DNA of 64,000 nucleotides, from NCBI GenBank assembly GCA_030536755.1, contig JAUNPJ010000007.1, forward strand, positions 2,115 through 66,114. Direction: 5' to 3'. The position numbers and the translations under genes are program-made. Source of the DNA: Eubacteriales bacterium. Lineage in GTDB: Bacteria > Bacillota > Clostridia > Lachnospirales > Lachnospiraceae. Below the pieces are notes generated by a model. That model had not been told where the DNA came from and did not search any database. It worked only from the letters and a program-made list of their open reading frames with translations. Numbering within the stretch: position 1 is the first letter of the stretch; every line of letters starts with the position of its first letter. Shown in pieces: positions 5,235-23,799 of the stretch.

Positions 5235-5848
5235 TCCTTCTCCTCCTTACGGCAGATTTCCTCGATCACCGTTGTATCTACATCGTCCTCATAAAGACGC
5301 ATCTGCACTTGCATCGGAGTCGGATCCTGTGTGATTTTCACCCTGCCAAAATGATTAAAAAAGAACAGCACGCCAAGACCGATTCCCACCGAATACGACA
5401 GATGAAGAATATTAAATCCTGACGGCTGCTGCCCCATAAACTGGACATAAATCTGATCAAACAGCTTTCCTACATCCACGTCATTATTAAACGTCATAAT
5501 AGAAAAAGCTGTTCCAAAAAACGTGATCAGACAGACCAGCGCGGTTTTCAGATAGCTGAACATTTTGTGTTCGTGTTTTTCTGCCTCATAAGTAATGATA
5601 AAAGTTGGTTCTCCCACATGGGTCACATCCACCGTATGATCTTTTTTCTGTATTTTTTCAATGATATCCGTCACCGTGATCACATATCGTCCCGTTTTTT
5701 TGGAATCAATATTCAAAACAGGAAGTGCCCGAAAACGATCCAGCGTCTTGCTGTCACTACAGGCAAGCTGCGCCACATCCTGCAGATATACATGCGGCCT
5801 GTGAACCTCCACATTTTTATCCGTCTGAATATACAAAGTCTCGCTCAT
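5219..5848 (-). CDS. spoVAA: Stage V sporulation protein AA
   Basis: 209 aa, first gene of the spoVAA-AB-AC run. GGGAGG RBS. Confidence 0.75.
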   Translation of the reverse strand: MSETLYIQTDKNVEVHRPHVYLQDVAQLACSDSKTLDRFRALPVLNIDSKKTGRYVITVTDIIEKIQKKDHTVDVTHVGEPTFIITYEAEKHEHKMFSYLKTALVCLITFFGTAFSIMTFNNDVDVGKLFDQIYVQFMGQQPSGFNILHLSYSVGIGLGVLFFFNHFGRVKITQDPTPMQVQMRLYEDDVDTTVIEEICRKEEKECGSR

Positions 5849-5901
5849 AAAAAGCCTCCCGAAATTATTCTTCAGGATTTACTATATCCAGAAAATCTCA
5901 A

Positions 5902-5930
5902 AACTATGCGCACACTTTCATTTTTTATAC
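5902..5930 (-). promoter_or_regulatory. Forespore (sigma-G-type) promoter candidate for spoVAA-AB-AC
   Basis: Minus-strand sense reads GTATA, 17 nt, CATAGTT. The -35 overlaps the last codons of the AEC transporter gene. Confidence 0.5.
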
Positions 5931-6869
5931 GAGTCCAAGCGTTTTGAGTATATAAAGCCATCCTGTCAGAGTAAGCGCACTGAAAAAGGTTGTCAGCATA
6001 ACTGTGCTGGATGTCAGTGTTCCCTCATGTCCCATATTTTTTGCCATAATATAGCAACTCACCGTGGTCGCAGAACCAAGCATCACAAGAATCGCTACCA
6101 GTTTTTCTCTGGTAAATCCCATATGTACGGCGACAGGCAAGAAGACTGCCGCCAAAACCACCAGCTTGATCAATGTGGCAAGAACTGCCGGACGTATCTT
6201 CTCTGTCGCCTGCTTCGCATCAAAAGAAGCGCCCATAGCCATCAGCCCAAGCGGTGTTGCAAGAACAGCTACATTTTTCACTGTTTTTTCCAGGATAACC
6301 GGCATCGGAATTCCAAGCAGTGACCATGCCATTCCGGCCAGAATTCCTAAAATAATCGGATTCGTGATAATTCCCTTCAGCGTCTTTCCAACCACCTGAC
6401 GACTGATTGGTTCCCGCACAGGTTTCATCACAGAAAGTACCACAACTGCCATCACATTGTATAAAGGAACCGTTCCGATAATCATAAGCGGTGCCATTCC
6501 GGCATTCCCATAAATATTCTGGATAAAAGCAATTCCAAGGATTGCCGCGCTGCTTCTGTATGCAGCCTGGATAAACTCGCCCTGAATCGTCTTATCTTTT
6601 AAAAGATAGGACACGCCAGTAACCGCCAGAATACTGATCAGTGTAGCCAGGAAACAAAACAGTACAAATCTGGTATCCCACACCTTCCGAAAATCCACCG
6701 CAGCCAGATCGTGAAACACAAGAACCGGCAGTGCCGCCTTGAAGACAAACCTGTTCATTTTACTGACAAAGGACTCATCCATCAGTCCTGTTTTTCTGAA
6801 AAGGCCGCCCAATATCATGGTAAAAAAGATAGGCAGCGTCGCATTCAGACTAAAAATTAAATTTTCCAT
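5925..6869 (-). CDS. AEC (auxin efflux carrier / malate permease-like) family transporter
   Basis: About 10-TM protein (MENLIFSLNATLPIFFTMILGGLFRKTG). GGAGAA RBS precedes the ATG at 6869. Confidence 0.75.
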   Translation of the reverse strand: MENLIFSLNATLPIFFTMILGGLFRKTGLMDESFVSKMNRFVFKAALPVLVFHDLAAVDFRKVWDTRFVLFCFLATLISILAVTGVSYLLKDKTIQGEFIQAAYRSSAAILGIAFIQNIYGNAGMAPLMIIGTVPLYNVMAVVVLSVMKPVREPISRQVVGKTLKGIITNPIILGILAGMAWSLLGIPMPVILEKTVKNVAVLATPLGLMAMGASFDAKQATEKIRPAVLATLIKLVVLAAVFLPVAVHMGFTREKLVAILVMLGSATTVSCYIMAKNMGHEGTLTSSTVMLTTFFSALTLTGWLYILKTLGLV

Positions 6870-6918: not shown

Positions 6919-7647
6919 TTATTTTTCCAGACCCAGTGTTCTGTTTTTCATTTTTCGAAGAATCGCCTTCTCCTTTCGTGAAACCTGTACCTGAGAGATT
7001 CCAAGTATCTGTGAAATCTCCGTCTGTGTCATATCCTGAAAATACCGCATATAGATCAGACGTCGTTCCTCCGGTTCCAGACCACCCAGCATTTCTTCCA
7101 AAAGCAGCCGGTTCAGCAGATGCTCCTGCCTGTTTTCTGCTTCGGGGATTTTATCTCCCAGACAGATATCGTTCCCATCTCCCTGATAAATCGTCTTCTG
7201 CAGAGATTCTACATCAGCCGAGGCATCCAGCGCCAGCAAGACATCTTCATAGCAGATACCGATTTCCTCAGAAATCTCCAGAAGTGTCGGCTCTCTTCCC
7301 ATCTGTTTTTCCATTGCTTCTCTTGCCGTATAAACCTTATAGGCAATTTCCTTCATAGAACGGCTAACTTTCAGCGGTCCATCATCTCTCAGAAAACGCT
7401 TGATCTCACCGGAAATCATCGGAACTGCATACGTTGAAAATTTCACATCAAAAGAAAAATCAAAATGATCCACCGCCTTGAGAAGTCCAATACTTCCAAT
7501 CTGAAACAAATCCTCAAGTTCTACCCCTCGATTAGAAAAACGCCGCACAATGCTCCACACAAGTCCCACATTTTCCTGAAAAATTGTATCTCTTGCTTTT
7601 TTATCTCCCTGGTGTGCTTTTTGAATCAAAGCAAGAGTAGAATCCAT
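6919..7647 (-). CDS. sigF: RNA polymerase sporulation sigma factor SigF
   Basis: Full sigma-70 regions 2-4 (FSTYAVPMISGEIKRFLRD; TQTEISQILGISQVQVSRKEKAIL), directly downstream of spoIIAA-spoIIAB. Confidence 0.9.
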   Translation of the reverse strand: MDSTLALIQKAHQGDKKARDTIFQENVGLVWSIVRRFSNRGVELEDLFQIGSIGLLKAVDHFDFSFDVKFSTYAVPMISGEIKRFLRDDGPLKVSRSMKEIAYKVYTAREAMEKQMGREPTLLEISEEIGICYEDVLLALDASADVESLQKTIYQGDGNDICLGDKIPEAENRQEHLLNRLLLEEMLGGLEPEERRLIYMRYFQDMTQTEISQILGISQVQVSRKEKAILRKMKNRTLGLEK

Positions 7648-7649
7648 CG

Positions 7650-8075
7650 TTACCTCCCTATGTTTTTCTTCATAAACACGGTGGTCCCTTCCCCTGGCTT
7701 TGATTCTACCTGAAGTTCATCCATAAATGCCTCCATAAAAGCAAAACCCATACCGGAGCGATCAAGCTCCGGTTTTGTGGTGTACAACGGTTCCATCGCT
7801 TTTTGAATGTTCTCCATTCCTTTTCCCCAGTCCGTCACTTTGATTGAAATACTTCTGTTTTCCACTTTACATTCCAGACGAATCTTATGTACTTCACCCT
7901 CATAGCCATGAATGATTGCGTTGGTAATCGCTTCCGATAAGGCAGTCTTAATGTCTGCCACCTCTTCCAATGTCGGATTCAGCTGTGTGCAAAATGCTGC
8001 CACTGCAACTCTGGCAAAGCCTTCGTTTCCCGGACGGCCGTCAAATTCTATCATCATTTCATTGGTAGCTCCCAT
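7650..8075 (-). CDS. spoIIAB: Anti-sigma F factor (serine kinase SpoIIAB)
   Basis: GHKL kinase motifs (EAITNAIIHGY, DWGKGM, GMGFAFM). AAGGAGA RBS precedes the ATG at 8075. Confidence 0.9.
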   Translation of the reverse strand: MGATNEMMIEFDGRPGNEGFARVAVAAFCTQLNPTLEEVADIKTALSEAITNAIIHGYEGEVHKIRLECKVENRSISIKVTDWGKGMENIQKAMEPLYTTKPELDRSGMGFAFMEAFMDELQVESKPGEGTTVFMKKNIGR

Positions 8076-8092
8076 GCCATTCTCCTTTCCCA

Positions 8093-8407
8093 TTAATAGG
8101 TTTCACTCATTGCAATAATTTTATGCATACCCGACAGACATAAAATTTTTCGAATTCTCTCATTTGCCTTGCAGGCCTCCACACAGTTTTTCCGCATGCC
8201 CAGTGCACGATACCTGCTCATGATCATCCCAATTCCTGAGCTGTCCATAAATACGGTGTCACTAAAATCAAAAACAATCTTTTTCACATGATTCTCGGAC
8301 ATAATTCTGTCCGTCGTCTGTTTGACCTCTTCCCCCATCTCATGATCCAGTTCTGCGGGCATTCTCACATACAGACATGCCCCCTGCAATACATAATTCT
8401 GTTCCAT
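8093..8407 (-). CDS. spoIIAA: Anti-sigma F factor antagonist (STAS domain SpoIIAA)
   Basis: 104-aa STAS domain with DFSDTVFMDSSGIGMI (phospho-serine motif). GGGGGAG RBS. Confidence 0.9.
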   Translation of the reverse strand: MEQNYVLQGACLYVRMPAELDHEMGEEVKQTTDRIMSENHVKKIVFDFSDTVFMDSSGIGMIMSRYRALGMRKNCVEACKANERIRKILCLSGMHKIIAMSETY

Positions 8408-13398: not shown

Positions 13399-16050
13399 CT
13401 ATTTCTTCATAGTTTCCAGTTGAACCGTAACCTTTTCCATCATATCTTTATATTTCTGTAATTTTGCTTTTTCTTCCTGAACTTTGCTTGCCGGAGCTTT
13501 GGAAACAAATTTCTCATTGCCAAGCATTCCCTCTGCACGGGCAATTTCCTTTTTCAGTCTTTCCTGCTCTTTGAGAAGACGTTCTTTCTCCTTCTCCATA
13601 TCCACCAGTTCATCCAGCGGCAGATATACAACTGCATTGTGAACAACGATGGATACCGCATCTTCCGGGATTCCCGCCTTGGTAGACTGCACACGTACCT
13701 TTGTCGCATGTACCAGAGAAGCATACGCCTGTTTCTGATACTCATACATTTCGCAGGCTTTCAGATCAGCACCTACGATAAATACTTTTGTCTTCTTATT
13801 CTGAGGAACATTCATTTCCGCACGGGCGTTGCGCACACCTCTTACGACTTCCTTGATTCCTTCCATCATTTCAGCGGCAATCGGGAACTCCCACTCTTTT
13901 TTGTATACCGGCCAGTCTGCGATCATGATGGATTCCTCTTCCGGAAGAAGCGTACAATAAATCTCCTCTGTGATAAACGGCATAAACGGATGCAGAAGTT
14001 TCAAAGCCTCTGTCAGTACGGTACGCAGCGTCCACATTGCATAATCAGCAGAATCCTGATCGTACTCTGCCATACGAATACGAATCTTGGCAATCTCAAT
14101 GTACCAGTCACAGAATTCATCCCAGATGAAATCATAAATTTTCTGTACGGCAATTCCAAGTTCATACTTCTCCATGTTGTCGGTGACATCTTTGATCAGA
14201 GTATTCAGCTTGGACAAGATCCAGCGGTCTGCCGGCTTCAGCTGGAAGCTTTCCGGTGTCTCAAAACTCTTTCCTTCGAGATTCATCATGATAAATCGGG
14301 AAGCGTTCCATACTTTGTTTGCGAAATTACGACTGGACTCCACACGCTCCCAATAGAAACGCATATCGTTTCCAGGTGCATTACCGGTCATCAGAGTCAG
14401 ACGAAGTGCATCTGCGCCGTATTTGTCAATGACCTCCAGCGGATCAATACCATTGCCGAGAGACTTGCTCATCTTGCGTCCCTGGGAATCACGAACAAGA
14501 CCATGAATCAGAACATGCTCAAACGGTGTCTTTCCTGTCTGCTCCAGACCGGAAAATACCATACGGATAACCCAGAAGAAAATAATATCATAACCGGTTA
14601 CCAGAACATTTGTCGGGTAGAAATACTCATACTCCGGTGTTTTTTCCGGCCATCCAAGCGTGGAGAACGGCCACAGTGCAGAAGAGAACCAGGTATCGAG
14701 TGTATCCTCATCCTGTGTCAGATGGGTGCATCCGCACTTCGGACATTTCTCCGGCATTCCTTTCGCTACAACAGTCTCACCGCACTCGTCACAGTAGTAT
14801 GCAGGGATTCTGTGTCCCCACCAGAGCTGACGGGAAATACACCAGTCACGGATATTCTCCAGCCAGTGCAGGTAAGTTTTGTCAAAACGCTCCGGAACAA
14901 ATTTCAGATTGCCATCCTCCAGTGTCTTAATCGCAGCCTTTGCCATCTCATCCATTTTTACAAACCACTGCGGTTTGATCATTGGCTCTACCGTTGTCTT
15001 GCAGCGGTCATGTGTTCCTACGGCATGTGTATGATCGACAACTTTTACCAGCAGTCCCTGTGCATCCAGATCGGCAACCATGGCTTTTCTTGCCTCATAA
15101 CGATCCATACCTGCGTATTTGCCGCCTTTTTCATTGATGGTGGCATCGTCATTCATGATGTTTATTTCTTCCAGATTGTGACGTTTTCCTACCTCAAAGT
15201 CGTTCGGGTCATGTGCCGGTGTGATCTTTACACAGCCGGTTCCGAATTCTTTGTCTACATACGGATCTGCAATCACAGGAATTTCTCTGTCTGTCAGAGG
15301 CAGTTTTAACATTTTTCCAATCAGATGCTGATATCTCTCATCGTCTGGATTTACCGCTACTGCCGTATCTCCAAGCAGAGTCTCCGGACGTGTGGTGGCA
15401 ATCTCTACAAATTCATTTTCACTTCCCACGATCGGATATTTGATGTGCCAGAAATGACCAGCCTGATCCACATGCTCTACCTCGGCATCGGAAATGGAGG
15501 TCTGACATACCGGACACCAGTTGATGATTCTGGATCCTTTGTAAATATAACCTTTTTCGTATAATTTTACAAATACTTCCTCAACAGCCTTGGAGCATCC
15601 CTCGTCCATGGTAAAACGTTCTCTCTCCCAGTCAGCAGAAGAACCGAGTTTTTTCAGCTGATTGATAATACGGCTGCCGTACTCTTCTTTCCATGCCCAT
15701 GCATGTTTTAAGAATTCCTCTCTTCCGATCTCATCCTTGTCAATGCCCTGTTCTTTCAGTTTTTCAATAACCTTTACTTCCGTTGCGATCGCTGCATGGT
15801 CGGTTCCCGGCTGCCACAGTGCCTCATATCCCTGCATTCTCTTAAAACGGATGAGGATATCCTGCATCGTGTTATCAAGTGCATGTCCCATGTGAAGCTG
15901 TCCTGTTACGTTTGGCGGGGGCATAACGATGGTAAATGGTTTCTTGTCCGGATTTACTTTGGCATGGAAATAGCCATTGTCCATCCATTTCTGGTACAAT
16001 CTTTCTTCTATGTCCTTCGGATCATAGGTTTTTGCAAGTTCTTTTGCCAT
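13399..16050 (-). CDS. valS: Valine--tRNA ligase
   Basis: Class I aaRS with the HIGH-type motif PPPNVTGQLHMGHAL, KMSKS, and a C-terminal coiled coil. AAGGAGAA RBS precedes the ATG at 16050. Confidence 0.95.
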   Translation of the reverse strand: MAKELAKTYDPKDIEERLYQKWMDNGYFHAKVNPDKKPFTIVMPPPNVTGQLHMGHALDNTMQDILIRFKRMQGYEALWQPGTDHAAIATEVKVIEKLKEQGIDKDEIGREEFLKHAWAWKEEYGSRIINQLKKLGSSADWERERFTMDEGCSKAVEEVFVKLYEKGYIYKGSRIINWCPVCQTSISDAEVEHVDQAGHFWHIKYPIVGSENEFVEIATTRPETLLGDTAVAVNPDDERYQHLIGKMLKLPLTDREIPVIADPYVDKEFGTGCVKITPAHDPNDFEVGKRHNLEEINIMNDDATINEKGGKYAGMDRYEARKAMVADLDAQGLLVKVVDHTHAVGTHDRCKTTVEPMIKPQWFVKMDEMAKAAIKTLEDGNLKFVPERFDKTYLHWLENIRDWCISRQLWWGHRIPAYYCDECGETVVAKGMPEKCPKCGCTHLTQDEDTLDTWFSSALWPFSTLGWPEKTPEYEYFYPTNVLVTGYDIIFFWVIRMVFSGLEQTGKTPFEHVLIHGLVRDSQGRKMSKSLGNGIDPLEVIDKYGADALRLTLMTGNAPGNDMRFYWERVESSRNFANKVWNASRFIMMNLEGKSFETPESFQLKPADRWILSKLNTLIKDVTDNMEKYELGIAVQKIYDFIWDEFCDWYIEIAKIRIRMAEYDQDSADYAMWTLRTVLTEALKLLHPFMPFITEEIYCTLLPEEESIMIADWPVYKKEWEFPIAAEMMEGIKEVVRGVRNARAEMNVPQNKKTKVFIVGADLKACEMYEYQKQAYASLVHATKVRVQSTKAGIPEDAVSIVVHNAVVYLPLDELVDMEKEKERLLKEQERLKKEIARAEGMLGNEKFVSKAPASKVQEEKAKLQKYKDMMEKVTVQLETMKK

Positions 16051-16083
16051 GATTTTCTCCTTTTCTTCATTAAAATAAAGTGT

Positions 16084-16330
16084 AAAAAACGCCCTCACAG
16101 CCATGCGGCTGCAAAGGGCGTATAATCGCGGTACCACCTTTGTTATGTACAAACTGTACACATCTTTCGCATCCTGTAACGGGGATGATTCGTGAAAGCC
16201 TACTATGCAGTTCAGCCTTCCGGTTCAAAAGCTACCTTCTATTCACACTGCCTGGAATATCTTACAGCCGATGAATATTCCTCTCTGTGAGGGTTATGAA
16301 TATACTCCTCTTTCTCCCAACCTTTTTCTG
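16084..16330 (-). promoter_or_regulatory. T-box leader (tRNA-Val-sensing riboswitch) upstream of valS
   Basis: Sense strand carries an AGAGAG bulge plus a GGCUGUAA distal loop. The T-box core is AAGGUGGUACCGCG. The terminator is CGCCCUUUGCAGCCGCAUGGCUGUGAGGGCG followed by UUUUUU. The UGGU in the T-box bulge predicts discriminator A73, which fits tRNA-Val. The specifier region reads GAAGGUAGC, so GUA is likely. Confidence 0.85.
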
Positions 16331-16389: not shown

Positions 16390-19300
16390 TTATTCCACGC
16401 TCTTTAAGCTCTCCACCATGTCAATTTTTTTCAGTTTAAAATGCATCATCCCATTGACGAAAGCTGAGAAACCTGCAGTAAAAACAGCGCTGATACAGTA
16501 GCTGACTATCGTGATGACACGTCCGAACATAATCGTGTCCGTCTCCACCGTCACGATGATAAACCGATGAAGAACCGTTCCAAGTCCAATTCCGAGAATG
16601 ACACCGAAAATTGTCAGCAGTACATTTTCCCGGAAAACATAAGCCGATACTTCTGCGTCATAAAATCCAAGAACCTTGAGTGTTGCCAGCTCCCGCCTTC
16701 GCTCTGTGATGCTGATGTTATTCAGGTTATACAAAACGACAAAGGCCAGAAGTCCTGCCGAAGCGATCAGCACGACAATGACCATATCCAGCGTTTTGAG
16801 CATATCGTCGAGCTGGGCACGGATAGCACTGGTATAGCTGATACTGAGTGCGGCTTCGTTCTGGAGGATTTCCTCTCCAACTGTCTGTTCCTGCTCTTTA
16901 TACTCTTCTGTGATGGTAAAAAGGATGTCCTGATATTGTGGCTGTACACCAAAACATTGTTCATACAATTTCGGTGTCATATAGATATAGTGATGCATAT
17001 AATTTTCACAAACAGCAGCGATTGTCACCGTTCTGCCCTTCTTATCACCTTCCTTGAGTACAATCTCATCACCAGCCTGAACCTCCAGCAAACTGGCAAT
17101 TTTCTCGGTAATAATCACACCACCATCTTCCATCGTAAACGTTTCCTGTGTGATCCGGTCACGAAGCGTCACAAAATCACGAAAAGCTTCTGTATTCTCC
17201 GGCACGTACAGGTATGCATCCTGTTTCTTCTCACCGTTCTTTACTTCCATCTTGTGGAAGTATACCGGCGTATATGCCTGCACCCCTTCCATCTGCTCCA
17301 TCGACTCCTTCAACTGCTTTTTCTCACTTCCGCTGGCATCTTCATCCGCCAGTACAAGGCCATCATAGCGTTGAATATCTCCATACTGGAGATTTCCGAT
17401 ATCCATGATGGAATCCCGGATTCCAAATCCCACGATCAGAAGTGCCATACAGCCGCCGATTCCGAATACCGTCATCAGAAAACGTTTTTTGTAGCGAACC
17501 AGATTTCGAATGGTCGATTTCCAGGTAAAGCTTAACGGTTTCCACAAAAACGGAATGTGCTCCAACAGTACGCGCTTTCCTGCTTTCGGAGCAGGAGGAC
17601 GCATCAGCGCTGCCGGTGTATCCAGAAGTTCCCTAAAACACGATGCAATCGTTGCAGCCATCGTACAGAAAAGAGCTGCTCCCGATGCCAGAAGCGCATA
17701 CTTTGTCTCATAAGGAATGACGACATCCGGCATATGAATATACAAAATCTTATACGCAATTACAATGATATAAGGAATCAGTTTCTCACCCACCAAAATA
17801 CCAAGAATGCTTCCTCCAATCGTTGCAAATGCAGCATACAGAATATATTTGGCGGCAATACTCGCCTTGCTGTAACCAAGCGCCTTCATCGTGCCGATCT
17901 GTGTTCTTTGTTCCTCCACCATTCTTGTCATTGTCGTCAGACTGATCAGTGCAGCCACCAAGAAAAACAATACTGGAAAGACTTTTCCAATATTATGGAT
18001 ACGCTGGGCATTGTCGCCGTAACCCGTGTACTCCGGCAAGTCATCTCTTGTCGAGATCATCCATTCGGGATCCTTAAGATCTTCAAGCTCCTGTCTGGCA
18101 TCCGCAAGTTTTCGCTCTCCATCTGCGATTTCTTCCTCTGCATCGGCCTTTCCGTCCTCATATTCTTTCCAGCCGTCTTTTAGTTCTTTGCGTCCTTTTT
18201 TGAGATCTTTTGCTGCCTGTTTCAGCTTTTCTTCATTTTCTTCAATCTCTTTTTCTGCATCCTCCAGCTTTTTCTCATTTTCTGCAATTTCTCTGGCGGC
18301 ATCATTGAGTGTCATCTGACTCGACAGAATTTCACTCCATCCACGGTTGATCTGTGCCTGTCCATTGTCAATCTGGCTCTGGGCATCGTTAATCTCCTGC
18401 TGTTTCTTCTCCAGTTCCTGTCTTGCATGAGCAAGCTCTGTCTGCCCTGCATCCAGTTTTGCCTGATTGGTGTTGATTTCCTCCTGGCTGTCGTTCAGTT
18501 TTTGTCTGTTTGCATCAATCTGCGCCTGCCCTGCGTCAATCTGCTGCTGATAAGGCGCAAACTGTGCCTGAATGGCTGCGATCATACTTTCATCTGTCAC
18601 GCCGTTTAAGGCCTCATTGATCTGCTGCTGAAGGTCGGCACTTTGTTGGTTTAGTTCCTCCTGTTTCTCTTCGAGCTGTGCTCTCCCGCTGTCGAGTTCC
18701 TGCTGCGCATCCGCAAGCTTCTGTACAGATGCATCCAGCTCAGATTGTTTCTCATTGAGCTGAAGAATCCCCTCATTGAGCTGCATCTGTCCATCGTTCA
18801 ATTCCCGCTGAGAGTCATCCAGTTTCTCCTGCTGCGCATTCAGCTCATCTCTGGCGCTGTTCAGCTGCGAAAGTCCATCCTCGTACTCTGCCTTTCCATC
18901 GGAAAGCTGTTTTTTTCCGTCCGCAACTTCCTGTCTGGCATCGGCCAGCTTCTGTTTGCCATCGTCGTATTCCTGCTGCCCCTCTTCGAGTTCTTTCTCC
19001 GCATCCTCCAGCTTCTGTCTGGCATCGGCAAGTTCCTCTTCTGCCTCCTGTTTACCATCCGCAAGTTCTTTTTCCGCATCTGCAATTTTCTCATTCGCTT
19101 CTTCCATGACTTCATCGTAGCGAAGCTGACACTGTACATCCTGAATGCCTTCCAGGCGTTCTTCGATCTGTGCAACCAAATGGTCATACGCATCGGAATA
19201 GCTTTCCATCTCTCTTGCACCTTCAGCCTCCATGTAAATCTCGGTATAGACATCGGACTCAAAGCTTTCCTCTGTCACATACGCAAATGCATCGACTTCG

Positions 19301-19860
19301 CCGGAACCAAGCGTGCTGTTGCCTCTATCGAACGATATGTACATAGGCGAAGAAGCCGTTCCCACAATCTCAAATTTCTTTGTGCGAAGCATCCCGTCTC
19401 CGTCTTCCTTCCACACCAGTGTATCTCCAATCTGATGATCATGCTCTTTCATATAATCTTCATCGATGACACACTCTCCCTTTTTCTTCGGAAGGCGTCC
19501 CTCGGATACTTCCAGTGCATTGAGTGAATCCGTCAAGCTTTCCACATGAAGAACCGTCTGCACATCTTCCTCACTGCATAAAACATCTGTGAAATATGCA
19601 GGTTCCGCGAGACTGACGTCTTCCAATGCTTCGATTGCCTCCACATCCTCATCAGTCAGTCCCATTGTACTGATGACTTTCAAATCCATCAGTTTGTATC
19701 TGTCGTAATAGGCATCGGCCGAATAGCGCATATCCGGTGCGGATGCCTGTATTCCTGAATAAAAAGCTACCCCCAGCGCCACAATAAAAAAGATAGAAAT
19801 AAAACGGGTGAAGCTTTTTCTGATTTCCATAAGAAAATCTTTTCTGAGTGCTTTTTTCAT
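16390..19860 (-). CDS. MacB/FtsX-type ABC transporter permease (two FtsX modules) with a ~350-aa coiled-coil insert in the first extracytoplasmic domain
   Basis: N-terminal TM (FISIFFIVALGVAFYSGI) and two FtsX-like 3-TM blocks. A long heptad, low-complexity segment reads ADAEKELADGKQEAEEELADARQKLEDAEKELEEGQQEY... Confidence 0.8.
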   Translation of the reverse strand: MKKALRKDFLMEIRKSFTRFISIFFIVALGVAFYSGIQASAPDMRYSADAYYDRYKLMDLKVISTMGLTDEDVEAIEALEDVSLAEPAYFTDVLCSEEDVQTVLHVESLTDSLNALEVSEGRLPKKKGECVIDEDYMKEHDHQIGDTLVWKEDGDGMLRTKKFEIVGTASSPMYISFDRGNSTLGSGEVDAFAYVTEESFESDVYTEIYMEAEGAREMESYSDAYDHLVAQIEERLEGIQDVQCQLRYDEVMEEANEKIADAEKELADGKQEAEEELADARQKLEDAEKELEEGQQEYDDGKQKLADARQEVADGKKQLSDGKAEYEDGLSQLNSARDELNAQQEKLDDSQRELNDGQMQLNEGILQLNEKQSELDASVQKLADAQQELDSGRAQLEEKQEELNQQSADLQQQINEALNGVTDESMIAAIQAQFAPYQQQIDAGQAQIDANRQKLNDSQEEINTNQAKLDAGQTELAHARQELEKKQQEINDAQSQIDNGQAQINRGWSEILSSQMTLNDAAREIAENEKKLEDAEKEIEENEEKLKQAAKDLKKGRKELKDGWKEYEDGKADAEEEIADGERKLADARQELEDLKDPEWMISTRDDLPEYTGYGDNAQRIHNIGKVFPVLFFLVAALISLTTMTRMVEEQRTQIGTMKALGYSKASIAAKYILYAAFATIGGSILGILVGEKLIPYIIVIAYKILYIHMPDVVIPYETKYALLASGAALFCTMAATIASCFRELLDTPAALMRPPAPKAGKRVLLEHIPFLWKPLSFTWKSTIRNLVRYKKRFLMTVFGIGGCMALLIVGFGIRDSIMDIGNLQYGDIQRYDGLVLADEDASGSEKKQLKESMEQMEGVQAYTPVYFHKMEVKNGEKKQDAYLYVPENTEAFRDFVTLRDRITQETFTMEDGGVIITEKIASLLEVQAGDEIVLKEGDKKGRTVTIAAVCENYMHHYIYMTPKLYEQCFGVQPQYQDILFTITEEYKEQEQTVGEEILQNEAALSISYTSAIRAQLDDMLKTLDMVIVVLIASAGLLAFVVLYNLNNISITERRRELATLKVLGFYDAEVSAYVFRENVLLTIFGVILGIGLGTVLHRFIIVTVETDTIMFGRVITIVSYCISAVFTAGFSAFVNGMMHFKLKKIDMVESLKSVE

Positions 19861-19868
19861 ACACATCC

Positions 19869-20585
19869 CTACCATTCTATCTGTTCTACCGGCATTGGAT
19901 GCTCATTCATATGCATGGAAGATACTTTTCCATTTTTAATCTTGATCACCCGGTCTGCCATCGGTGTCAACGCCGAGTTGTGTGTGATGACTATAACAGT
20001 CATCCCTCTTTGGCGGCACATATCCTGAAGCAATTTCAGAATTGCCTTTCCTGTCTGATAATCGAGCGCACCGGTAGGCTCATCACACAGCAAAAGCTTT
20101 GGATTTTTCGCCAGTGCTCTGGCAATCGACACGCGCTGCTGCTCGCCTCCAGACAATTGCGCCGGAAAATTTCCCAGACGATCCGACAATCCCACATCAC
20201 GCATCACCGTCTCCGCATCCAGCGGATTTTTGCAGATCTGCAGTGCCAATTCCACGTTTTCCAGAGCCGTCAGATTTGGTACAAGATTATAAAACTGAAA
20301 CACAAACCCAATGTCTTCTCTTCGGTATGCCGTCAGCTGTTTTTGCGAAAAACGTGCAATGTCTTTTCCGTCCACCCATGCAGAACCGCTGGTGGCCGTA
20401 TCCATTCCTCCCAAAATATTAAGAACGGTTGTCTTGCCGGCTCCACTCGGACCGACAATCACCACAAATTCTCCCTTATCAATGGAAAAATCGATTCCAT
20501 CCACCGCCTTGATCTGCACTTCCCCTTTGCCATATATCTTTGTGATACCTTCCAGCTTCACAAAATCTTTTGTCCCATCCACCAT
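19869..20585 (-). CDS. ABC transporter ATP-binding protein (MacB/LolD-like)
   Basis: Walker [10 protein letters not shown], signature LSGGEQQR, Walker [21 protein letters not shown] precedes the ATG at 20585. Confidence 0.9.
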
Positions 20586-20674: not shown

Positions 20675-20878
20675 TCACAACTTGTTGAGCTCTTTTTTTC
20701 GTTTTGTCATCAATCCACCGATACGGCCTGTTTCTTTCGCGGACAGGCTCTTCCATCCTTTCTGTAAAACCTGATCCAGCAGCCCCAGTTCCTCCGCTAT
20801 TTCATATTTCAGTTGTTCCTGCGGTGTCAACTGATGAAGTTTAAGCTTCTCCAGCTCTTTTTTCTTACTTTTTCCCAT
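20675..20878 (-). CDS. Alpha/beta-type small acid-soluble spore protein
   Basis: 67 aa with KYEIAEELGL and GRIGGLMTKR motifs. GGAGG RBS. Confidence 0.8.
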   Translation of the reverse strand: MGKSKKKELEKLKLHQLTPQEQLKYEIAEELGLLDQVLQKGWKSLSAKETGRIGGLMTKRKKELNKL

Positions 20879-20909
20879 ATCATACTCCTCCATATCAAAT
20901 GATTACCAA

Positions 20910-20938
20910 GAGTATGAACCTTTTTTTCAAATCTATAC
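20910..20938 (-). promoter_or_regulatory. Forespore (sigma-G-type) promoter candidate for the SASP gene
   Basis: Sense strand reads GTATA, 17 nt, CATACTC, about 30 nt upstream of the ATG. Confidence 0.55.
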
Positions 20939-20990
20939 ACAAAAGACCTGACAAAAGGACGGATTCCTGTCTTTACCTATCCTTAACCTG

Positions 20991-21575
20991 TGCACCATTT
21001 TCCTGGTCAACGGAACACTTCCAAACGGCAAGGTTTGGCTTGAGGACTTCCGAACAGCCATTTGCGCAGGGGAGACTTTCCACATCAAGTGCAGGTTTGT
21101 CTGCTTGTTCCGGCAGACAAACCTGCACTTTGATTCCGGAAGGTGATGGTTCTGTGCAAATTGGCTGTTCTACACGAATGGCAGTTGCCTTTACAGGTGC
21201 TACGTGGGCGAAGCGGCCAAAAAATTTTGTGTTATTTATAGTAAGGCTGGAAAATATCACAAAGTATAGAAAAAAGTAGGAGTTTTCCGCATGACCGTGC
21301 TCGTCCGGGAGGGATACCACCGCACAGGCATTTGGAGAAATTTTCGCAGATTTTTCGAGCATAGCGATTGCTCGCGACGCACTGTTTGAGCACTGTGTGC
21401 GAGTTTGCGTCAAGAGCAATCCATAAGCGGCGCAGAAAAAGCAAGAAAATCGACATGCCTGTGCGGTGATATCCCTCCCGGGCGAGTGGCGGTCATGTGA
21501 AAAACTCCGAAAGAAAATGACCCGAAAACTATGCCATTGGGAAGTGTTCCGTTGACCAGGAAAGTGGTGCACATA
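20991..21575. other. 585-bp non-coding element built of nested inverted repeats (candidate large structured RNA, inverton, or palindromic mobile DNA)
   Basis: Outer arms 20991-21032 / 21534-21575. Inner helices 21054-21070/21155-21172, 21091-21106/21115-21130, 21281-21333/21457-21510, 21368-21375/21416-21423 and 21378-21383/21408-21413. No credible CDS. Confidence 0.6.
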
Positions 21576-21591
21576 CAGCACATACAATTCC

Positions 21592-21620
21592 GGCCAGAGA
21601 GTTTTGCTCCCTGGCCGGTC
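21592..21620 (-). terminator. Hairpin downstream of the PspC-domain gene (poor U-tract)
   Basis: CCGGCCAG (21592-21599) pairs with CTGGCCGG (21613-21620), 4 nt after the stop codon. Confidence 0.4.
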
Positions 21621-21624
21621 GTCT

Positions 21625-21810
21625 TTAGCTTGGAATAATGATAGCAGCGATGATATAGGCGATGATGCCCGTTCCCAGACTGGCACAGGTGAGAAGTACC
21701 CACACTAACCGCACCAGCGTCGGATCTACATTAAAATATTCTGCAATGCCTCCGCACACACCACAAACCATAGAATTCACAGATGACTTGTATAATCTTT
21801 TATCGCTCAT
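21625..21810 (-). CDS. PspC-domain membrane protein
   Basis: 61 aa (LYKSSVNSMVCGVCGGIAEYFNVDPTLVRLVWVLL). AAGGAGGA RBS. Confidence 0.85.
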   Translation of the reverse strand: MSDKRLYKSSVNSMVCGVCGGIAEYFNVDPTLVRLVWVLLTCASLGTGIIAYIIAAIIIPS

Positions 21811-23404: not shown

Positions 23405-23722
23405 TTATATCCCCCCTTCAAAAAGTTTTGTGATCTTTGATGTATAGTTTTTCCATTCGACTTTGTATAAATTCAGCTGTGCTGCTCCTTTGTCTGTCAA
23501 TTTATAATATCTGCGGTTTCTCCCTCCGTATTCCATATCGTAAACTTCCAGGCAATCATCTTTCTGCAGCCTTCGCAGTACCGGATACAAAGTCGATTCT
23601 GATATTTGAAGCACCTGCCTGACATCCTGCGTGATCTTGTATCCATAAGTTCCTTCTTTTTCCTTAGATACAACTGCCAGAACGATTGCATCCAGCAGGG
23701 CTGCGCCTGTATTAAAAATCAT
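23405..23722 (-). CDS. PadR family transcriptional regulator
   Basis: 105-aa winged HTH (GYKITQDV...STLYPVLRRLQKDDCLE...RRYYKLTDKG). Confidence 0.9.
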   Translation of the reverse strand: MIFNTGAALLDAIVLAVVSKEKEGTYGYKITQDVRQVLQISESTLYPVLRRLQKDDCLEVYDMEYGGRNRRYYKLTDKGAAQLNLYKVEWKNYTSKITKLFEGGI

Positions 23723-23770
23723 TGATCCACTCCTTTATTAGATTTTGTGTAATATTATTTCTTTATTAAT

Positions 23771-23799
23771 ACTATATATCATATAATATTATTTGTCAA
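23771..23799 (-). promoter_or_regulatory. Sigma-A promoter of the padR operon, bracketed by two ATAATATTAT palindromes
   Basis: Sense strand reads TTGACA, 17 nt, TATAGT. Identical 10-bp palindromes lie at 23783-23792 and 23801-23810. Confidence 0.6.

Follow-up and report, generated by a model that had tools for sequence, protein, structure and literature searches.

A probable decayed copy of a MITE-like foldback repeat between the pspC and SASP genes of an uncultured Lachnospiraceae

Results

The Locus and Its Neighbours

The window, by which we mean the whole stretch of 64,000 nucleotides that was analysed (contig JAUNPJ010000007.1 of assembly GCA_030536755.1), contains a 585-bp spacer between an alpha/beta SASP gene at 20675-20893 and a PspC-domain gene, pspC, at 21625-21810, both on the minus strand and both as named in the initial annotation. 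On the side of pspC the neighbouring genes encode PadR, HAAS and DUF4097 proteins, while on the other side the SASP gene is accompanied by an ABC transporter. Two pieces of sequence frame the spacer in all alleles of the locus that are considered here, and both lie outside the element that fills it. One is the region upstream of the SASP gene at 20894-20960 (minus strand), which we take, from the known consensus, to be a promoter of the forespore type; the flank shared on this side begins at ...CTTTTGTGTATAGATTTG on the minus strand. The other is a terminator-like hairpin of the pspC operon at 21590-21618 (minus strand). Relatives for comparison of the locus were taken as contigs with identical SASP or PspC proteins, or with close DUF4097 homologues; among them L029, a contiguous 67-kb scaffold, carries the orthologous copy of the element between pspC and the SASP gene.

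Some further features of the neighbourhood may be recorded here. The gene at 16390-19875 (minus strand) encodes a 1161-aa ABC permease of the MacB/FtsX type with a very long, Q/E/K-rich coiled-coil insert. It adjoins its ATPase gene and the SASP gene, and its orthologue in L029 has Pfam matches to MacB_PCD and FtsX together with weak matches to coiled-coil families. A 920-aa ORF at 13399-16161 (minus strand), whose L029 orthologue has Pfam domains of the valyl-tRNA synthetase type, is preceded by a T-box leader at 16111-16327 (minus strand; 113 bits against an Rfam gathering score of 93). Three consecutive ORFs at 6919-8407 (minus strand), with translations inspected by eye only, resemble a spoIIAA-spoIIAB-sigF operon, in keeping with the SASP gene and with a host that forms spores.

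Inverted Repeats of the Window Copy

The nested inverted repeats of the 585-bp spacer are real, and all the pairings that had been proposed for it are confirmed, some of them with changed dimensions. When the window copy is compared with other copies of the same element, its span becomes ~20961 to ~21589, with the outer boundary approximate, so that the core of the span first given, 20991-21575, stands while both ends are placed further out. The parts are described here from left to right. The left tip at 20961-20988 is eroded. When the ends of different copies are compared, its sequence (GGATTCCTGTC...TTAACC) corresponds in degenerate form to the terminal consensus AAyTTCCTGTTTGT(n)GGTCGTA. 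The tip is followed by the left arm of the terminal inverted repeat at 20989-21036, which is 90% complementary to the right arm at 21526-21573; the outer repeat is therefore present as annotated, with a length of 48 nt in place of 42 bp. The left arm is conserved at ~88-98% across all copies.

Inward of the left arm lies domain D1 at 21052-21172, which repeat scan and folding define as the hairpin of the left unit with its apex lost. Its outer helix (21052-21063 / 21159-21170) was recovered as expected, and it encloses a perfect hairpin at 21087-21130 with a loop of 8 nt and a stem of 18 bp (21087-21104 / 21113-21130), not 16 bp. From copy alignments, an AT-rich centre at 21173-21278 separates the two units, and it differs in length and sequence among copies and holds cargo genes in other alleles. 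The second unit has the D2 stem, with its 5' strand at 21279-21336 and its 3' strand at 21450-21510; the helix described at this place is indeed found, as a two-part pairing (21279-21297 / 21490-21508 plus 21300-21336 / 21450-21486) of ~55 bp, and the stem is defined by repeat scan, by RNA and DNA folding and by compensated stem haplotypes between copies. The stem encloses the core of what we call module M, at 21340-21450, which has six short helices according to alignments and pairing statistics. Among them are the inner helices GATTGCTC/GAGCAATC and GACGCA/TGCGTC, both of which had been noticed before and were found by the repeat scan. The right arm, located by repeat scan and copy comparison, is followed by an eroded right tip at 21574-21589, which lacks the ...CTACAAACAGGA segment of the family and into which a tandem duplication of GCACATACA (21569-21577, 21578-21586) extends; L029 has the same junction.

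The predicted folds are correspondingly strong. With RNA parameters the plus strand of the window copy folds at -319.9 kcal/mol (z = -22.2) and the minus strand at -295.9 kcal/mol (z = -19.9), with DNA parameters the copy has z = -18.8, and in none of the three runs did any shuffled sequence fold equally well. Searches of the window copy and of a full-length copy against Rfam, at gathering and at relaxed thresholds, returned only sub-threshold hairpin noise of the microRNA type, a scan for tRNA and tmRNA returned nothing, and no sigma-70-like promoter was found within the element. The spacer was said to have no credible coding sequence, and this holds: a protein-coding reading of its ORFs of 237 and 126 aa was rejected, since they have no Pfam match and are absent from other copies.

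Copies at Unrelated Loci

The window contains one copy only, and the element had been described as an orphan. When one genome per species was scanned for an exact 20-mer of the arm, six contigs of the Lachnospiraceae bacterium SUG1049 MAG matched, as did one contig of another MAG, and the homology of these copies was confirmed by BLAST and by profile search. Identity among copies, with the window copy included, is 84-93%. The copies adjoin unrelated housekeeping genes and lie nearly always at contig ends, the contigs breaking inside the element. Since homologous copies are thus dispersed over other contigs, the window element is no orphan and belongs to a repeat family.

A complete copy is found at L018:~290-1100, and its orthologue is carried by a contiguous scaffold, L040, between a pyrophosphatase and a glyoxalase gene; the two are 95.7% identical at the nucleotide level. 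Just outside the consensus tips of this copy, ~18 nt on either side are inverted repeats of each other (GTGAAAGAAATAGTACAC / GTAAAAGAAATAGTATAT, at L018:265-290 and 1088-1106 and at L040:5054-5072 and 5915-5932), which would be accounted for either by insertion into a palindromic target or by an inverted duplication that took in some of the flank. No clear direct repeat that could be a target-site duplication was seen at the L018/L040 copy, at allele C (described below) or at the window copy, for all of which the boundaries are approximate. Neither was an empty site recovered among relatives: at the pyrophosphatase locus these have the element or a different synteny, and at the pspC-SASP locus they have the element or a different gene after pspC, so that the more distant relative with such a different gene yields no empty site.

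The scans of sequence collections were exact matches to patterns of 20-26 nt and missed diverged copies, and the distribution and copy number given here are therefore lower bounds. BLASTN of the element against plasmid and phage collections gave no match, and neither did arm and M patterns in viral contigs. A degenerate 24-mer of the arm gave five matches in a scan of JGI metagenomes; these were rejected as family members and are treated as chance, because BLAST shows no similarity to the element beyond the 24-mer. In the loci examined, no copy has a transposase gene next to it or a linked integrase or HUH gene, and no autonomous partner or parent insertion sequence with matching ends was found in the fetched loci, in the plasmid and phage collections or in the viral contigs. 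Full-text literature searches on MITEs and Lachnospiraceae, and on three sequence strings, gave nothing relevant, and the family has apparently not been described so far.

Hairpin inserts also occur in the spacer between addA and padR. In the window this spacer is short (23722-23779). In L029 it contains, at 5770-5850, a remnant of a D2 stem without arms, and in L007 and L033 it contains a different perfect hairpin with a stem of ~27 bp (GGGACAGGGGACAGGTTTGTGTCCGG...). The insert alters the C-terminus of AddA. From the differing inserts at this place it follows that small hairpin inserts come and go in such genomes.

Architecture of the Intact Element

Alignments of copies give the intact element a size of ~730-880 bp. 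It is built from two units of ~350 bp that are inverted relative to each other, with an AT-rich centre of varying length between them, and each unit consists, going inward, of a terminal arm of ~80 bp, a variable spacer of ~20-40 nt, a stem of ~50 bp and module M of ~110-130 nt. The terminal consensus, read outward, is ...GTGTTCCGTTGACCAGGAAAgTGGTGCACATACGACC(n)CTACAAACAGGAAnTTG, beyond which the flanks are unrelated; the form ...GGTGCACATACGACC(n)CTACAAACAGGAAnTTG is common to copies, and the end sequences of the family are AAyTTCCTGTTTGT...GTATGTGCACC. Just beyond the tip, bases like ..A(C/T)C or T(A/G)AAAG are frequent, though not constant. While the arm is conserved in sequence, the stem is free in sequence and keeps its pairing: the stems of D1 and D2 have unrelated sequences, and both pair.

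A second module M, here called M', is present in the intact D1 of L018, L029 and L040. M and M' are ~78% identical, lie on opposite strands of one element and differ by compensatory changes in four helices. The core helices include, beside the two inner ones already mentioned, an apex GCAC-TGT-GTGC, and between M and M' unpaired stretches such as CACTGTTTGAGC and CCATArGCGGCGCAG are kept invariant. The pairing was quantified over 14 distinct sequences of the M core (window 21340-21450). Its 33 pairs are formed in 98.9% of cells, and seven pairs have changes on both sides; when the 3' partner is slid by 1-3 columns, only 32-55% of cells are paired, and the covariation score was reached by no shuffle. 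G-U pairs occur in 1 of the 462 cells.

Decay of the Window Copy

Alignment of the window copy with the orthologous copy in L029 shows that 144 bp are missing from the window at the apex of D1, with module M' and the inner stem included. From this alignment, the perfect 18-bp hairpin is the scar of the 144-bp deletion. An origin of the deletion between CAGAC direct repeats was considered and rejected, since no clear repeat is seen at its ends in the same alignment. With both tips eroded and one M gone, the window copy is a relic and probably immobile; in L029 the left tip is shorter still. The SASP upstream region is intact just outside the window copy. The copy most likely has no specific role here, and at most it would separate the pspC operon from the SASP gene as a long hairpin barrier.

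Alleles of the pspC-SASP Locus in Relatives

Three alleles are found at the locus. Allele A (window, L006/L009, L029-L032) has the order pspC - arm - D2 - centre - D1 - arm - SASP, and in L029-L031 it occurs in the full-length form, with the second M in D1, on contiguous scaffolds. Allele C (L001, L004, L005, L007, L011-L013, L015) has the reverse orientation, intact inverted repeats of ~80 bp and added flank on both sides. In allele B (L002, L008, L010, L014, L016, L036) a D2-type unit stands at each end, pointing outward, with cargo between them. This cargo comprises a DUF3784 gene together with a nitroreductase-like gene, and the latter is split by an IS607-type tnpA/tnpB pair. The tandem duplication of GCACATACA at 21569-21586 is shared by L009 and L029 and is absent from allele B (L008: ...GCACATACGATT).

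The element can accordingly carry cargo genes between its units, and its interior is inverted between lineages. Within a given lineage, independent samples all have the same orientation. In sublineages of allele C both arms of a copy carry common derived substitutions; the two arms of one copy thus evolve in concert, which implies that they exchange information, and such exchange can also flip the interior.

The IS607-type pair, located at L002:441-1888 and L008:3454-4906 between the units of allele B, consists of a TnpA with a MerR-type HTH and a serine recombinase domain and of an OrfB_IS605 TnpB that carries a frameshift in L002. A link of the pair to the repeat was rejected, since the two share no sequence, and because the pair lies inside a broken nitroreductase-like gene it is treated as an independent insertion.

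Pairing at the Level of DNA or RNA

The initial annotation had seen in the G-U positions a weak hint of a plus-strand RNA. In a census of the predicted stem pairs in ten units across copies there are 593 Watson-Crick pairs, 16 G-T and 11 A-C, and the hint disappears: the mismatches have no strand bias. This, together with the near lack of wobble pairs, points to hairpins at the DNA level. Between L018 and L040, three mid-stem positions of D2 differ, and all three are compensated on the other strand, while L019 has a chimeric, mismatched stem; the two observations fit an exchange of hairpin haplotypes between copies and a correction from arm to arm. The sequence comparisons indicate that the palindrome is maintained at the DNA level, with which an RNA role for M would still be compatible, since covariation and conserved unpaired stretches such as those in M are also expected of a functional RNA.

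Discussion

The family described here is dispersed in multiple copies that have a common architecture, variants with cargo and with inverted interior, and constrained pairing, and its member in the window is decayed. We consider it probable that the stretch ~20961-21589 of the window is a decayed copy of a non-autonomous, MITE-like mobile foldback repeat, from a family that occurs in uncultured, spore-forming Lachnospiraceae. In such an element the arms would be the recognition sites of an enzyme that is supplied in trans, and the stem with M would work as a folded single strand, of DNA more likely than of RNA. Three explanations had been offered at the outset, a large structured RNA, an invertible switch and nested palindromic mobile DNA, and the last comes closest and is partly supported: mobility is borne out by the dispersed family, while the idea of nesting by separate insertions is not, as all intact copies have one fixed two-unit build.

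The constraint on M is what a functional structured RNA would also produce. M with its long stem could be such an RNA, for example a regulatory or guide RNA encoded by a transposon and freed from the ~50-bp stem by RNase III, with the arms merely as its vehicle. The almost complete pairing of the M core with its two-sided changes and failing slid controls, the invariant unpaired stretches that M and M' have in common, the wholly different stems that still pair, and the fold of the plus strand of the window copy, which is more stable by 24 kcal/mol than that of the minus strand, all speak for this. Against it stand the unbiased stem mismatches and the single G-U cell in M, a scarcity that is unusual in an RNA under selection. 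Since the two M modules lie on opposite strands, moreover, no single transcript has both in the same sense; a sigma-70-like promoter inside the element and a match to an Rfam family were both looked for and not found, the window copy has lost one M with the locus retained, and the compensation between close orthologues resembles haplotype exchange rather than selection. An RNA carried in this way is unlikely, and the proposal of a large ncRNA in the class of ROOL, GOLLD or OLE, on which the missing Rfam match, the unbiased mismatches, the scarce G-U pairs and the promoter search also bear, is not supported. A related and rather unlikely possibility is that M on its ~50-bp stem would do the work in a mobile element of a new kind, and this reading could take either of two forms. 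M might be an encoded structured RNA, for example the guide or regulator of a trans-acting enzyme, or else a large single-stranded DNA site that folds for a hairpin-dependent transposition or recombination able to move cargo genes. Rfam and the collections searched contain neither form.

Two other explanations concern the inverted build. A programmed switch, in which a site-specific recombinase flips the segment of ~490 bp between the 48-bp arms and thereby controls either the SASP gene or transcripts that read through from the pspC operon, is suggested by the long inverted repeats that bound the segment, by homogenised arms of one copy, which show arm-to-arm exchange, and by the occurrence at the same locus of pspC-arm-D2 in some assemblies and pspC-arm-D1 in others, among them megahit k141 contigs with a k-mer that spans the 48-nt arm. 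Orientation is, however, fixed by lineage, with the window and L029-L032 one way and L005, L007, L012 and L013 the other, and the two groups differ too in flank sequence and arm length. The same element also sits at unrelated loci in another genome, the window has no recombinase gene nearby, no promoter-like site lies inside the element, and the SASP upstream region is outside it in all alleles. Both orientations thus exist at the locus, and that a programme sets them is very improbable. The units might also be cassette-type recombination sites, similar to integron attC sites or dif modules, that act as folded single strands on which a tyrosine or HUH enzyme works; they would then bracket exchangeable cargo, and the window copy, which has none, would be a cassette site left empty. 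Two inverted units do surround different cargo in L008/L002 and in L036, the stems, like attC sites, keep their pairing with a free choice of sequence, no duplicated target was seen, and either strand can fold equally well. But known sites of the kind are all much smaller than these units, most copies are single, scattered and without cargo, and the loci read contain no linked integrase or HUH gene, the only nearby recombinase being the IS607-type TnpA, which looks like a separate insertion. We regard cassette sites as quite improbable and retain the non-autonomous foldback repeat as the preferred reading.

Bacterial MITEs are exemplified by Correia/NEMIS elements in Neisseria, by RUP and BOX in Streptococcus pneumoniae and by ERIC. 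The repeat resembles them in that it is small, non-coding, intergenic and multi-copy, with dispersed copies, long hairpins and terminal inverted repeats (48 nt in the window, ~80 nt when intact), and in that it breaks short-read assemblies and its copies decay in place. It differs in being several times larger, so that 585 bp, or 730-880 bp when intact, falls at the upper end of the class, in its two inverted units of ~350 bp with a conserved and covarying module, and in that it can hold cargo genes; in addition, neither a target-site duplication nor a parent insertion sequence was found for it. REPINs, of ~70-100 nt, are pairs of inverted REP palindromes of ~20-40 nt with a conserved tetranucleotide, a GTAG-type motif, and are moved by a RAYT, which is a Y1 HUH transposase encoded by a single linked gene. 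The inverted doublet, the single-strand hairpin and the compensated pairing are common to both, and as in REPINs no target duplication was seen here, but the present units are ~350 bp with long arms, and no RAYT-like or HUH-type gene occurs in the loci read.

The palindrome-associated elements of IS200/IS605 and the attC sites of integrons are likewise similar, in that structure is kept while sequence is free, no duplicated target is seen and a folded single strand is likely the active form. IS200/IS605-type elements have subterminal hairpins and insert 3' of a fixed target of 4-5 nt, and both the elements derived from them and attC sites have small hairpins and no long terminal inverted repeats. 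The presence of such repeats here argues against membership of the IS200/IS605 type, and neither a Y1 transposase nor an integron integrase is linked to the element. The bcr repeats of the Bacillus cereus group are also a chromosomal family of Firmicutes, of a few hundred bp and with a stable predicted fold, some members having compensatory changes; there is, however, no sequence relation, bcr repeats have no two-unit inverted build, and several of them have defined target duplications. The large RNAs ROOL, GOLLD, OLE, raiA and HEARO are of the same size class and are heavily structured by prediction, but no covariance model matched at the relaxed threshold, and those RNAs are not near-perfect palindromes. 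With invertible promoter switches (fimS, and those of the Bacteroides and C. difficile types), finally, the element shares bounding inverted repeats, and neither a sigma-70-like promoter inside it nor a recombinase gene near it in the window was found.

If the spacer is a relic of selfish DNA, as we think probable, a false lead is removed, in that the locus would contain neither an RNA gene of the ROOL/GOLLD class nor a phase switch that acts on a spore gene. The family itself is of mild interest, as an unusually large two-unit foldback repeat of gut Lachnospiraceae with a covarying core, with cargo variants and with no mobiliser found. It breaks metagenome assemblies at many loci. The mobilising enzyme, if found, could show by what means hairpin-dependent elements are moved in these gut bacteria, which have been little studied.
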